Positions 40,709-47,221 of a DNA stretch of 64,000 nucleotides are shown one piece after another. The position numbers and the translations under genes are program-made. The stretch comes from Candidatus Poribacteria bacterium (GTDB lineage Bacteria; Poribacteria; WGA-4E; WGA-3G). The DNA lies in assembly GCA_963667365.1 (NCBI GenBank), contig OY763324.1:4414509-4478508 (forward strand). The letters are read 5' to 3'. Numbering within the stretch: the stretch's first letter is position 1; each line of letters begins with the position of its first letter. The notes below the pieces were generated by a model that made no database searches, had not been told where the DNA came from, and worked only from the letters and a program-made list of their open reading frames with translations.

Positions 40709-41515
40709 GCTGTTGTCTGAATCACGAAAGGGATGAAAGGGATGAAAATGTGGGAAGGGATACGCCTCTTCTTTTTGTCTGAATCACGGAAAACACAGAA
40801 GAAGATGAAGGGGATGAAAATGTGGGAAATGCCTTTATATATCAGTTTCATTTTCAAGGATTAGGTGTATACCTGTATACGTGTATACTTGTATACCCGA
40901 ACCAGCACCTCTTCTGTAGGAGCGACTTCCCAGTCGCGACTGTCTTCTCTTTGTCTGAATCACGGAAGTCACGGAAGGGGATGAAGGGGATGAAAATACG
41001 AAGAAGGTTATTGTTGAATAAGGGTAGTTTGTTAGGATGTGTGGTTCGTTGTGATATAACTATAAGATGTCGGGAATCGGAGTTCCCTCCTACAGAAGAG
41101 GTTACGGTAGCAGGCACGCTCCGCCGTGCCGTCCGGCTTTCTGGGTGTATACCTGCATACGTGTATACTTGTATACCGCACCTTGATAAACCATAACCCC
41201 ATCTGTATTTTCCTCCGCTTCCTCCCCTTCTGTGCGTTCCGTGATTCAGACCAATGTAAGATGTCGGGAATCGGAGTTCCCTCCTACAGAAGAGAAAGAC
41301 GGTCGCGACCGGGAGGTCGCTCCTACAGAAGAGGTATATCCCTTCCGTATTTTCCTCCGCTTCGTCTTCTTCCGTGCGTTCCGTGATTCAGACAAACAGA
41401 AGAGAAAGGCGGTCGCGACCGGGAGGTCGCTCCTACAGAAGAGGTATATCCCTTCCGTCTTTTCCTCCCCTTCCTCCCCTTCTGTGCGTTCCGTGATTCA
41501 GACAAACATACCGTG
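40705..41515. repeat. Intergenic mosaic of modular short hairpin repeats including TGTATAC module
   Basis: GTCTGAATCACG module (x3), GGTGTATACCTGTATACGTGTATACTTGTATACCCGAACCAGCACCTCTTCTGTAGGAGCGACTTCCCAGTCGCGAC, GGTAGCAGGCACGCTCCGCCGTGCCGTCCGGC, and GGTCGCGACCGGGAGGTCGCTCCTACAGAAGAGGTATATCCCTTCCGT (x2). Confidence 0.85.
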
Positions 41516-41545
41516 TTTTCTGTTACGTTAGCAGGGTCACCCAAC

Positions 41546-43436
41546 CTACTGCGGAACGGATGCACCCGCAACATCCCACACATACAAAATACCCTCTTCA
41601 CACCGACTGACAAGTTTGTCGCCGTTTGGTGTGAACTCAATATCAGTAACCATTCTCTGATGACCCGGAAACTTCCGCAGAGACTCACCAGAGCCGACAT
41701 CGAATAGTTGGACAACACCAGATTCGTTCCCAGTTGCCAGCATATTCCCGTCAGGACTAAACGCGATACTGTGCACACCATATTCATCGCTTTTGATAAC
41801 TTTCTTTTGTTCAGCTGTCCCTGTATCCCATAGATAGATTGTGCGGGTACTATCAACACTTGCGATTGTTGTGCCATCCGGACTGAATGTAACTTTGGAA
41901 AAATTGGGGGCATGCCCGTCAATCACACTAATTTCCGCACCTGTGTTAGCATCCCATAGCCTGACAGTCGTATCCAGAGATGCGCTTGCGAACATTGTGC
42001 CATCAGGACTGAAGGCAACACTTGTGACTTGAGCCTCATGCCCATCAAGCACCATCTTTTCTTCCCAAGTATTGGTGTTCCAAAGTCGGACAGTCTTATC
42101 CGAGCTGCCACTTGCGATTGTTGTGCCATCGGGACTGAAGGTAACGGAAATGACATAGTCCTCATGTCCCTTCATCGTTTTCAGCAATTCACCTGTTTTC
42201 CGATCATACACACTGAGGAAGTTTCCATAACTTGCGCCTGCGATGATAGTTCCGGATGGATTGAAGTCTATTTCGGAGTACGGAAATAGATCATCTTTCA
42301 GGAATGTTTTTTCCACTTTAGCAGAAGTAACATCCCATAGAAAAACTTTCTTGTCACGCGTTGGAGATAGGACTGTTTTGCCATCAGGACTAATGTCTAT
42401 ACAGCTGAAATTACCAAAATGACCTTCAAAAATATGTTTCTGTTCGCCAGAAACGACTTCCCAAATGCGGACGCTACCATCCTTAGCAGCGCTGGCGACC
42501 GTCCGTAAATCTGAACTGAAGGCAATACGAATAACACTTTCGCTATGTCCCACCAATTCCTTCCGAATTTTACCCGTTGCTGTATCAAATAAAAGGATAT
42601 TACCGTTCGCCTTGTTACATGCAAATAGGCTTCCATCTGGACTAAAAGTAAGGTTACGTACGCCATCGATATTGTCAATGTGTAGTTTCTGTTCACCAGA
42701 TTCTGTGTCCCATATACGGATGTTTTGGTTATCGCCAGCCGCAATTAGTTTGTCATCCGGACTAAACACGACAGTCCTTACTGTTCCCTCATGACCTTCA
42801 TAAGTATGTTCGGTTCTGCCAGTAAACGGGTCTAATACACTGACGACACCGCGCCGTCCTCCTGTTGCGATCATAAAGTTATTTGGATTGATGTCAAAAC
42901 TAAAAAAACCTCGTGAACCGAAGTTTTCTATCTTATCAAATACTTGCATTTCAGTGCCTGTTATTGGATCCCATAATCGGACGGATCCTTCTGTTCCCAA
43001 TATACCGAGTTTGTCTCCATTCGCACTGTAGAAGATTTTTATGGTTCGACGAAAAATCTTAAGTTCTCGAATGTGTTCTCCGGTGTCAGTATCCCAGAAG
43101 TGTGTTGTGCCACCGCCATCGGCACTTGCGAGCGTTTTCCCATTCGGACTAAACGCCATAAAATAGACATTACCTTTGTGTTTCTTCAGTAGGTAGATCT
43201 CTTTGAAATTGATTGTATCGTAAAGCCAAATCCCCATAGATGATGCGACAGCGAGCCGCGTGCCATCTTGGGTATATTGCATGTCGTTGATTTGTCCATT
43301 ACCGAGCCGTGCTATTACACCTTCGGGGATTTCAAAGTCTCTTTTTTTCTCTTGTGCAAATGTTGAGGTGGTTGTAAGTATGAGCGTTATCAGGATTGAA
43401 ATGTATATGTTTATTGGTGTGATTTTATATTTCATG
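41546..43436 (-). CDS. Secreted WD40 beta-propeller protein (tandem paralog A)
   Basis: ATG at 43436 (MKYKITPINIYISILITLILTTTSTFAQE signal peptide). Conserved first blade IPEGVIARLGNG...LAVASSMGIWLYD. About 13 WD40 repeats. The C-terminus ...RCEEGILYVWDVAGASVPQ is identical to paralog B. Confidence 0.8.
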
Positions 43437-45100: not shown

Positions 45101-46987
45101 CTACTGCGGAACGGATGCACCCGCAACATCCCACACATACAAAATACCCTCTTCACACCGACTGACAAGCCGATTGCCATCAGGTGTGAATGCTAAATCA
45201 GTAACCGGTTTGCGATGCCCGGAAAACTTACGTAGAGACTCACCAAAGTCAACATCTAACAGTTGGACAAGACCCGATTTATTGCCAATCGCCAGAGTGT
45301 CCCCATCTGGACTAAACGCTACACTCAATGTACCAGCGTCCTGTCCATCAAAAACCTTCTTGAGATCTCCTGTCCCCGCATTCCACTGATATATTGTTGT
45401 ATCAGTAGCACTTGTGATTGTTGTGCCATCTGGACTAAACGCTACACCTACTACACCATCCTCATGTCCTTCCAGCACACTTTTTTCCTCACCCGTGTTC
45501 GCATCCCATAGCCTGACAGTGTTATCCAGAGACGCGCTTGCGATTGTTGTGCCATCCGGACTGATTGCCACGCTTGTCACGCTATCCTCATGCCCTTCAA
45601 GGACTTGCTTCTCTTCCAATGTGTTGACATCCCATAGTCGGAGGGTCATATCCTTACTCCCACTCACAATCGTCTGTCCATCCGGACTGAACACAACGGA
45701 ATAAGCGTCATCCTCATGCCCTCTCAATATTTTCATGTTTTCTCCTGTTTCCCGATCCCACACACTGATGAAGTCTCCATGACTTGCGGTTGCGATGATA
45801 TTGCCAGAAGGATTGAAAGCAATTTCGGTGACAGAAAAAAAGCCTTCTTTTAGGAAAGTTTTTTCCAGTGTCCCAGAACTAATATCCCAGAGACAAACCT
45901 CCAGATCATGCGTTGGAGATACGACAGTTTGTCCATCTGGACTGATATCTATACAGGTGAAATTACCGAAATGACCGGGGAATATATGTATCTGTTTACC
46001 AGAAACGACTTCCCAAATGCGGATGCTTCCGTCCACACTTGCACTGGCGACCGTCCGCATATCCGAACTAAAGACGATACGAAGACCTCTACCTCTATGT
46101 CCCTTCAACACTTGCCGTTGTTCACCCGTATTTGCATCAAGCAAGTGGATATCTCCTATTGCGTTGTTACTTGCTAATAGACTCCCATCTGGACTAAAAG
46201 TAAGGTTTCGTACGCCATCGATATTGTCAATGTGTAGTTTCTGTTCACCAGAGACTGTATCCCAAATACGGATGTTTGCCCAATCCCCACTCGCAATTAA
46301 ATTGCCATCGTGGCTGAACCCTAATGTATTTACAATACCGTCATGACCTTCATAAGTTTGTTCGGCTGAGCCAGTAAATGGGTCTAACAAAGAGACGATG
46401 CCGTTACGATCACCGGTAGCAAGCATAATACTATTTGGATTTAGGGAAGTGCTGAAAATACCTTGTTCACGGAATTTAACGACATCTTCAAATGCTTGCT
46501 TTATCTCCCCTGTGTTCGGATCCCATAATATGATAGATCCGTCTACCCCCATCGTCTTAAGTATATCTCCATCACTACTGAAGATTAATATGATGACACC
46601 ATTGTTATTTTTTAGTTCTTTTACATGTTTTCCCGTGTCTGTATCCCATAGGTGGATGACACCCCTTCTATCGGCACTTGCGAGCGTTTTCCCATCCGGA
46701 CTAAAACCCATAAATTCGGCATATCTTTGGTGTTTCTTGAGCAGATAGATCTCTTTAAAATCGATTGTATCATAGAGCCAAATCCCTATAGAAGTTGCGA
46801 CAGCGAGCCGCGTGCCATCTTGGGTATACTGCATATCGTAGATACGACCTTTACCGAGCCGCGCTGTTGCACCATCGGGTAATTCAAATCCTTTCAGTTT
46901 ATCTTGTCCGAATGTAGGTGTGGATGCGAGTATGAGTGTTATTAGGAGTGAAATGTATATATTTATTGGTGTGATTTTATATTTCAA
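45101..46987 (-). CDS. Secreted WD40 beta-propeller protein (tandem paralog B)
   Basis: Start reassigned to the TTG at 46987 (KYKITPINIYISLLITLILASTPTFGQD) with AGGAG 7 nt upstream. The ORF track's 25-aa upstream extension was rejected. It is about 70% identical to paralog A overall. The first 20 aa and last 20 aa are near-identical to paralog A, and the two genes share an identical roughly 100-bp block just after the stop (45060-45165 matches 41505-41610). Confidence 0.75.
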   Translation of the reverse strand: MKYKITPINIYISLLITLILASTPTFGQDKLKGFELPDGATARLGKGRIYDMQYTQDGTRLAVATSIGIWLYDTIDFKEIYLLKKHQRYAEFMGFSPDGKTLASADRRGVIHLWDTDTGKHVKELKNNNGVIILIFSSDGDILKTMGVDGSIILWDPNTGEIKQAFEDVVKFREQGIFSTSLNPNSIMLATGDRNGIVSLLDPFTGSAEQTYEGHDGIVNTLGFSHDGNLIASGDWANIRIWDTVSGEQKLHIDNIDGVRNLTFSPDGSLLASNNAIGDIHLLDANTGEQRQVLKGHRGRGLRIVFSSDMRTVASASVDGSIRIWEVVSGKQIHIFPGHFGNFTCIDISPDGQTVVSPTHDLEVCLWDISSGTLEKTFLKEGFFSVTEIAFNPSGNIIATASHGDFISVWDRETGENMKILRGHEDDAYSVVFSPDGQTIVSGSKDMTLRLWDVNTLEEKQVLEGHEDSVTSVAISPDGTTIASASLDNTVRLWDANTGEEKSVLEGHEDGVVGVAFSPDGTTITSATDTTIYQWNAGTGDLKKVFDGQDAGTLSVAFSPDGDTLAIGNKSGLVQLLDVDFGESLRKFSGHRKPVTDLAFTPDGNRLVSRCEEGILYVWDVAGASVPQ

Positions 46988-47221
46988 GAGTCGTCTCCTG
47001 TGTTTTATTGTTTTGTGTGTATTTTGTAGACTTTGAGGGGATTCTATCATATAGAACAACACTATTCAATGTATTATATTTATAAATGTATGTTGTGACA
47101 GGATATGATGATGAGATCTTGTGTCGCACAAACCTTCATAGCATGTTGTCAGGCTGCTACGCAGAAAATAAGTGTCAGCGGTGAGTAAAAGAGGACGATC
47201 TTACTGACCGCTGACAGCCGA

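Follow-up and report, generated by a model that had tools for sequence, protein, structure and literature searches.

Two WD40-repeat genes, which we label A and B, lie in tandem on the minus strand of a 64-kb stretch of contig OY763324.1 from Candidatus Poribacteria bacterium (the window, whose numbering is used for all positions). They have diverged over most of their length and are probably still exchanging short tracts of sequence at their ends (Table 1). Gene A begins with an ATG codon preceded by AGGTGA. The TTG start of gene B has AGGAGA 6 nucleotides (nt) upstream and occupies the position homologous to the ATG of A, although the open reading frame (ORF) itself extends further upstream. 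The regions upstream of the two genes are unrelated (~47% identity), and sigma-70-like hexamers are present separately at each. The position first given for B is correct, whereas gene A starts at 43435 and not at 43436, a position one base too far that breaks the reading frame, and the products have 629 and 628 amino acids (aa) rather than 630.

Table 1 Features of the tandem WD40 pair and its surroundings. L001 and L008 are loci from two other strains, with A′ and B′ the orthologs in L001; REP, repetitive extragenic palindromic element; CDS, coding sequence.
Feature	Position	Strand	Description	Basis
Gene A	41546..43435	-	629 aa, ATG start; N-terminal signal-peptide-like helix, then 14 blades modelled as two 7-bladed propellers	ORF, Pfam, AlphaFold2, fold matches
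Gene B	45101..46987	-	628-aa paralog of A; TTG start	ORF, Pfam, alignment with A
Signal-peptide coding region of A (putative)	43355..43435	-	MKYKITPINIYISILITLILTTTSTFA-QE; B-like in the window strain, with 8 differences within 24 nt in L001	
Signal-peptide coding region of B (putative)	46907..46987	-	LKYKITPINIYISLLITLILASTPTFG-QD	
3′ homogenized tract at A	41484..41613	-	Last 68 nt of CDS, stop and ~60 nt downstream; 126/130 identical to 45039-45168	
3′ homogenized tract at B	45039..45168	-	Counterpart of 41484-41613	
Post-stop segment	41505..41545	-	GTTGGGTGACCCTGCTAACGTAACAGAAAACACGG...; exactly 2 matches in the window, behind A and B only; 39/41 identical	
Dispersed repeat module	41480..41504	-	TGTCTGAATCACGGAACGCACAGAA; distal edge of the shared block; 32 window copies, on both strands, behind unrelated genes	
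5′ boundary of B-like tract in A, strain-polymorphic	41607..41629	-	A-type CCAAACGGCGACAAAC kept in the window strain; partly B-like in L001, fully B-like in L008	
Internal 44-nt run	42657..42700	-	Same as 46209-46252; codons ~246-260, SGEQKLHIDNIDGV; candidate internal conversion patch	
A-B spacer	43436..45100	.	1,665 nt; clustered GTAG-tagged REP hairpins with accompanying modules	
REP cluster, Rep3 gene to 3′ end of A	40709..41545	.	Includes a 110-nt tandem pair at 41286-41505	

Both proteins match the Pfam WD40 family PF00400 (cutoff 27), with 305.9 bits in nine stretches for A and 303.4 bits in seven stretches for B. An AlphaFold2 model of A, built from 24 homologs, has a predicted local distance difference test (pLDDT) score of 89.8 and a predicted template-modelling (pTM) score of 0.84, and it comprises a helix at residues 7–26, a low-confidence disordered linker and 56 strands in D-A-B-C order, which make up 14 blades. 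Foldseek searches with this model returned the PDB entries 2ymu (E = 2.8e-48, 31% identity) and 1nr0 (Aip1; E = 1e-33) as well as axonemal WD proteins (template-modelling score 0.77), and the best fold matches are double seven-bladed propellers. As modelled, A and B are WD40 proteins whose 14 blades form two closed seven-bladed propellers. The N-terminus of A, MKYKITPINIYISILITLILTTTSTFA-QE, fits by eye the pattern of a Sec signal peptide that lacks a lipobox cysteine, and 18 of the first 21 residues are identical in A and B. Indeed, the N-termini of all eight WD40 paralogs in the window, again judged by eye, combine lysines and a hydrophobic core with a motif of the TFA-QE kind. Judging from these features and the modelled helix, A and B are putatively exported by the Sec pathway and may act in the periplasm or at the cell surface of this sponge symbiont.

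Over their full length, the two genes are 74.6% identical in nucleotides and 65% identical in amino acids, with a synonymous divergence (dS) of 0.65, a replacement divergence (dN) of 0.235 and a dN/dS ratio of 0.36. Amino-acid identity between corresponding blades ranges from 40% in blade 3 to 85% in blade 1, which replaces the figure of about 30% divergence originally given for the central blades. The 3′ ends depart sharply from these values. Positions 41505–41610 and 45060–45165 agree at 104 of 106 sites, as the initial annotation had noticed; this block does not follow the stop codons, as had been thought, but straddles them, with the last 68 coding nucleotides identical at every site (68/68) and the following 41 nt identical at 39. 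In the final 22 codons, which are the same at the nucleotide level, dS is 0 compared with 0.65 gene-wide, and the reported near-identity of the signal peptides and of the last 20 residues is borne out. The longest identical run within the coding sequence is 66 nt (72 nt across the stop), whereas the maximum in 10,000 permutations was 55 nt; a second identical run, the internal one of 44 nt, lies above the 99.9th percentile of the permutations, and for 22 consecutive identical third positions the permutation P value is 0.007. The suspicion that the downstream identity is simply a dispersed repeat applies to the distal part of the block, whereas the proximal 41 nt occur behind A and B only.

Comparison of three strains, in an alignment of five sequences, separates the age of the duplication from the age of the exchanges. 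The first is the window strain. The second is represented by L001, a syntenic sister-strain locus that carries the orthologs A′ and B′ and whose neighboring genes are 97–98% identical to those of the window. The third is represented by an ortholog on L008, one contig matched in a metagenome scan with the 3′ block, which comes from the sponge Sarcotragus foetidus (the assignment of the accession to this sponge is taken from PMC5099237). Because all informative coding sites in the comparison of the window with L001 group A with A′ and B with B′, the duplication predates the strain split, and the subfamily tree places A and B as sisters. Differences between the two strains are nevertheless concentrated at three places, in which one of the orthologs matches the paralog. 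In the signal-peptide region, A, B and B′ agree and A′ differs, at 8 sites within 24 nt (Bonferroni P ~1e-4). Where the 3′ tract begins on its 5′ side, 6 A-specific differences lie within 12 nt (Bonferroni P ~5e-4), and the boundary sequence CCAAACGGCGACAAAC occurs once in the window. Finally, in codons ~480–502, B′ matches A and B differs, at 7 sites within 65 nt (Bonferroni P ~0.03). The B-like tract in gene A has three nested start positions: L008 has the most upstream one, the window strain the most downstream and L001 one in between, while B is constant. Nested, strain-polymorphic endpoints with a common downstream anchor point to repeated conversion rather than to a cis-acting element. 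A donor for the A-specific boundary sequence or for the signal-peptide variant of A′ was found neither elsewhere in the window nor in the compared loci.

The same arrangement recurs in a tandem pair at another poribacterial locus, L002, from a Tara metagenome. This pair has a different gene neighborhood, and a check of orthology found the proteins adjacent to it to be unrelated to those adjacent to A and B. About 340 nt of upstream sequence and 180 nt of coding sequence are 98–100% identical between the two L002 genes, as is the 3′ portion, and dS is 0 over the last ~130 codons and 0.6–0.7 in central patches. The L002 pair is thus an independent instance of a mosaic with identical ends and a diverged center, and a more pronounced one than A and B. 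Taken with the absence of synonymous change in the last 22 codons, the match of the post-stop sequence and the nested endpoints in three strains, it supports gene conversion at the ends of A and B, as the initial annotation had proposed.

Could the termini be alike with no conversion at all, simply because purifying selection on the protein is strongest in the two terminal blades, the ones that pack against each other and close the propeller? For the first blade the answer appears to be yes. In 18 other members of the subfamily, the same blades and loops are variable as in A and B, conservation peaks in blade 1 and the N-terminal D0 strand (0.70–0.76), and the A–B identity of each blade tracks its conservation in the family (rho 0.64, P = 0.015). 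We therefore attribute the conserved first blade to family-wide purifying selection and not to conversion, and the original suggestion that conversion conserves the termini survives for the signal peptide and blade 14 but not for blade 1. Elsewhere, selection on the protein fares poorly. Constraint at this level leaves synonymous differences, yet there are none in the last 22 codons, and the identity runs on through 41 non-coding nucleotides. Moreover, two segments, and only these two, are more similar between A and B than the family norm, namely blade 14 (0.79 versus 0.53) and the signal peptide (0.86 versus 0.35), and they are the segments for which there is evidence of conversion. Given that the tract endpoints also vary by strain, this explanation is improbable for the pair as a whole and is largely refuted for the 3′ end.

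Selection at the nucleotide level could instead have kept the block across the stop codon as a cis element, such as a terminator, an mRNA-stability hairpin or a binding site for a small RNA or protein. Up to 12 nt past the stop, A, B and both L001 orthologs have the same block sequence, and REP-type elements located 3′ of genes have often been proposed to act as RNA elements (PMC3733652). Nevertheless, the folding energy of the block is no better than that of shuffled controls (z −0.4 to +0.2), and its upstream boundary varies among strains. The downstream half also appears to be dispensable, because an insertion of 35–42 nt located 12 nt past both stops in L001 replaces the downstream part behind A′. 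We give this explanation little credence. For this block, an RNA structure or a terminator was considered and rejected (fold z ~0, no Rfam match in the window and no terminator-like site there). The inserted element itself (CCTGCAAAACCCTATAAGGTAGTAGGCACGCTCCG...; L001 positions 9299–9345 and 11891–11945) lies at sites corresponding to window positions 41505–41545 and 45060–45100 and has no match in the whole window when up to 3 mismatches are allowed; it could be either a small mobile element that entered the same site behind both paralogs or a sequence copied between A′ and B′ by conversion.

The initial annotation also proposed that the ligand-binding blades have been diversified. With loops classified by the DSSP strand order of the AlphaFold2 model and the D-A and B-C loops taken as the top face, A and B differ at 51% of residues in top-face loops, compared with 28% in bottom loops and 32% in strands (Fisher P = 1e-4), and pairwise counting gives dN/dS ratios of 0.63, 0.25 and 0.31, respectively. 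Between strains, by contrast, top loops hold 11 of 45 replacements, versus 23% expected, and show no enrichment. The orthologs have dN/dS ratios of 0.41–0.42, compared with 0–0.03 for the Rep3, integrase and g441 genes next to them, whose dS is similar. Diversification of the ligand-binding blades is thus weakly supported: the changes between A and B are indeed enriched in top loops, but the ratio there is 0.63, strain-level replacements do not follow suit and the pattern is that of family-wide constraint.

Programmed diversification, in which conserved ends would direct the exchange of cassettes or the targeted mutation of a variable center, is known from antigenic-variation loci, diversity-generating retroelements and the shuffling of WD repeats in fungal HET-E/NWD genes, and it would accommodate the mosaics with conserved ends and variable centers in two independent genomes, the enrichment of variation on the presumed binding face and a replacement rate in the WD40 orthologs more than 10 times that of neighboring genes. 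We consider it very improbable here, since both copies are full-length with their own Shine-Dalgarno sequences and unrelated upstream regions and there are therefore no silent cassettes, the exchanges that we see homogenize the ends and do not shuffle the center, dN/dS is below 1, other tandem sets lack the pattern, and nucleotide identity among blade segments of 66 nt, both inside each gene and between A and B, is 61–74%, below the internal conservation that repeat shuffling requires. As to a diversity-generating retroelement, Pfam searches found no reverse-transcriptase domain in window ORFs of at least 150 aa, and the sole repeat of the variable region is the paralog itself.

We therefore return to conversion between old duplicates. 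In our view, A and B are probably old tandem duplicates that have mostly diverged under moderate purifying selection and still swap short conversion tracts at their ends, and their products probably serve as exported binding scaffolds. First, the tandem duplication is older than the split of at least three sampled strains. Second, most of each gene has diverged under moderate purifying selection, with replacements concentrating in the top-face loops and in blades 3–4, which are variable across the family too. Meanwhile, short RecA-type conversion tracts probably keep passing between the genes. Such passage is clearest at the 3′ end, where the tract is anchored in the common post-stop sequence and has 5′ endpoints that differ by strain, and it is also apparent near the signal peptide and in some patches inside the genes. 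The ends, with their constrained first and last blades and shared flank, could stay similar enough to recombine, making conversion self-reinforcing, whereas the center, at ~70% identity, may have escaped it. Finally, the two products might act as exported scaffolds with two different binding specificities.

Several observations weigh against parts of this account. The case for export consists of sequence features and the modelled N-terminal helix, and the top face was assigned from the DSSP strand order of a predicted model and not from coordinates. No site class reaches a dN/dS above 1 in pairwise counting, so adaptive diversification is not demonstrated, and outside the 3′ tract the heterogeneity in third-position divergence is marginal (P ~0.04). 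Other tandem sets of the family also behave differently. The members of a triple in L003 are uniformly 81–90% identical, with ends that are not homogenized, and a pair in L006 is 32% identical in amino acids and has no common 14-mers, indicating an ancient pairing. End homogenization, which is seen in L002 and absent in L003 and L006, is thus not a rule for the family. Likewise, no tract that reaches both 60 nt in length and 85% identity links any other pair of paralogs in the window, where exchange is confined to A and B.

All eight WD40 ORFs of the window score above the PF00400 cutoff and together occupy 15,783 nt, or 24.7% of the window, in agreement with the initial count of eight paralogs filling about a quarter of the coding capacity. 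The first-blade motif that they were said to share is exact in five of the eight and nearly matched in g2551 and g28505; g20514 lacks it. The closest database matches of A and B are metagenome proteins and proteins of Candidatus Poribacteria bacterium (P0009, P0012, P0117), and the sole related locus among GTDB representative genomes is in a poribacterial metagenome-assembled genome, at 54% identity. Further relatives occur in a metagenome of Ircinia variabilis. A and B belong to a Poribacteria-specific subfamily of proteins of ~630 aa that consist of a putative signal peptide and a double propeller.

The 1.65-kb repeat block between A and B, which had been singled out as a possible recombination feature of the pair, proves to be a cluster of REP elements of a kind found throughout the window and is not specific to the WD40 genes. 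The window contains 65 copies of a head sequence, CCTCTTCTGTAGG, compared with 0.04 expected by chance; nearly all are intergenic, and each precedes one of three hairpin types, AGGGAACTCCGATTCCCGAC, CGGGGAATGCC-N4-GGCATTCATACC or AGCGACCTCCNGGTCGCGAC. These elements take up almost all intergenic regions between 1 and 54 kb (for example, 23001–24500 and 30501–31500) and are absent at 57.1–64 kb, and companion modules swell intergenic regions to 0.5–1.7 kb. The clusters turn over fast, as the spacer between A and B is ~690 nt long in L001 and in the window contains an exact 143-nt tandem duplication (43698–43840 = 43841–43983). The same hairpin type ends the L003 contig, which comes from an Ircinia metagenome. 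To our knowledge, REP elements of the GTAG type have not been described in Poribacteria. No REP-associated tyrosine transposase (RAYT) was seen among the annotated ORFs of the window. Like the GTAG-tagged REP class described by Di Nocera et al. in 2013 (PMC3733652), the elements have a GTAG head and an imperfect palindrome of 20–40 nt and are high in copy number, extragenic, clustered and present in both orientations. They differ from that class in their very high density (65 heads per 64 kb) and in having three hairpin subfamilies behind a longer shared head.

Genes near the pair raise the question of what kind of replicon carries it. A Rep3-family initiator gene (PF01051 and PF21205) lies at 39386–40708, and its adjacency to gene A is kept in the window, L001 and L008; a gene for a ParA/MinD-like ATPase lies at 22377–22997. 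L001 is part of a syntenic contig of 170,038 bp, ctg49268c, whose trailing 'c' we take, by hifiasm-style naming, to mark a circular contig. We know of no plasmid described for Poribacteria, and none appeared among the 10 top-ranked of 105 literature matches. The window might belong to an accessory replicon of a sponge-associated poribacterium, a circular megaplasmid or chromid of ~170 kb with Rep3 and ParA-like proteins. About a quarter of its sequence would encode exported WD40 propellers, its intergenic DNA would be saturated with GTAG-type REP elements, and recombination driven continually by the REP clusters and by the conserved ends of genes would renew a repertoire of secreted binders. 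We regard this larger scenario as doubtful. If true, the eukaryote-like proteins of an uncultured phylum would have a 'symbiosis plasmid' of their own.

Several other features of the region vary between strains or suggest mobility. A 538-aa ORF without a Pfam match (48418–50034, minus strand) aligns between the window and L001 at the nucleotide level only at its two ends (89–95%), the interior having been replaced, and it has a dS of 0.67 and a dN of 0.41, whereas all neighboring genes have dS values of 0.03–0.06. This ORF, which lies beside the WD40 pair, looks like a hypervariable or allele-swapped gene. At L001 17846–21287, between a 441-aa gene and a sulfatase gene (window ~36545), a 3.4-kb insertion that is not in the window carries two genes, for a 420-aa protein and a 241-aa FRG-domain protein. 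Restriction-modification and nuclease genes encode a Type ISP enzyme (24280–27375), an MjaI endonuclease with an N6/N4 methylase (54301–54885 and 55516–56610) and an HSDR_N–SNase fusion (51–962), and a tyrosine integrase gene (53343–54275) is located where the REP-rich region stops. Together, these genes suggest a mobile or accessory region. Genes for a protein with a PSCyt1 (Planctomycete cytochrome C) domain and a sulfatase are found at 6147–7202 and 35004–36413. PSCyt1 proteins and sulfatases are typical of the Planctomycetes-like gene content of sponge symbionts that has been reported for Poribacteria.

More broadly, A and B offer a strain-resolved example of how the large repertoires of eukaryote-like WD40 proteins in sponge symbionts may evolve, through tandem duplication, relaxed constraint on presumed binding loops and continued short conversion at the ends. 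They also define a coherent subfamily of ~630-aa proteins, combining a putative signal peptide with a double propeller, for which there is now a confident structure model. The subfamily might serve to fish for ligands in sponge extracts. The pair reveals no new mechanism, and the REP saturation of the window and the possible Rep3/ParA replicon may be of more interest.

Comparison with known systems places the pair among kinds already described. WD40 domains are highly abundant in Poribacteria, often together with the sorting domain TIGR04183 (Kamke et al. 2014, PMC3909097). The picture of a host-associated bacterium with an expansion of eukaryote-like repeat proteins holds in kind, for a sponge-dwelling member of the Poribacteria, but the expansion itself was already published there. 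A part for these proteins in manipulating the host, as the initial annotation suggested, would be plausible. A and B resemble the proteins of that study in phylum, sponge origin and the presence of PF00400 repeats in many paralogs. The study gives domain counts, whereas tandem organization, gene conversion and the ~630-aa double-propeller subfamily do not feature in it. TIGR04183, a C-terminal sorting domain of the type IX secretion system (T9SS) type, has no match in A or B (cutoff 23), which end just past the last blade; it is not obligatory for the poribacterial WD40 group, having been reported in many but not all of its proteins. It is present in two other WD40 proteins of the window, g2551 (2551–5517; 39.9 bits) and g17351 (17351–19672; 28.3 bits), and in g10774 (10774–13791; 30.3 bits), a 1005-aa dockerin/FlgD-Ig protein without WD40 repeats; in all three it is a T9SS type A sorting domain. 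In L006, a PorV gene (14358–15539) is located close to a WD40 family member. No structural genes for Por secretion were found in Poribacteria by Kamke et al. (PMC3909097).

In fold, A and B are closest to Aip1/UNC-78 (1nr0) and to a 14-repeat WD40 protein of Nostoc punctiforme (2ymu), which likewise have fourteen blades per chain. Those two proteins, in contrast to what is predicted for A and B, are cytosolic and have no signal peptide, and no functional link is implied; moreover, the internal repeats of the Nostoc protein are near-identical, whereas the blades of A and B reach the modest nucleotide identities given above. The fungal HET-E, HET-D and NWD genes, in which WD40 repeats are shuffled and the top face is under positive selection, encode cytosolic STAND NTPases. 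They share with A and B a WD40 multigene family, recombination between paralogs and variation in top-face loops. They differ in their highly conserved internal repeats and in dN/dS ratios above 1 at specific positions, neither of which is found in A and B, and in domain architecture, A and B consisting of a putative signal peptide and propellers only. The nearest parallel in process is concerted evolution between bacterial paralogs, for example the duplicated tuf genes, where, as in A and B, there are short near-identical tracts, homogenized synonymous and non-coding sites and endpoints that are polymorphic among strains. In A and B, by contrast, only the ends and a few patches are homogenized and ~90% of the gene has escaped, so that the pair is not concerted as a whole. 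The WD40 expansion in Poribacteria was known, and this pair adds one more example to two familiar classes, eukaryote-like WD40 proteins and conversion between tandem paralogs.

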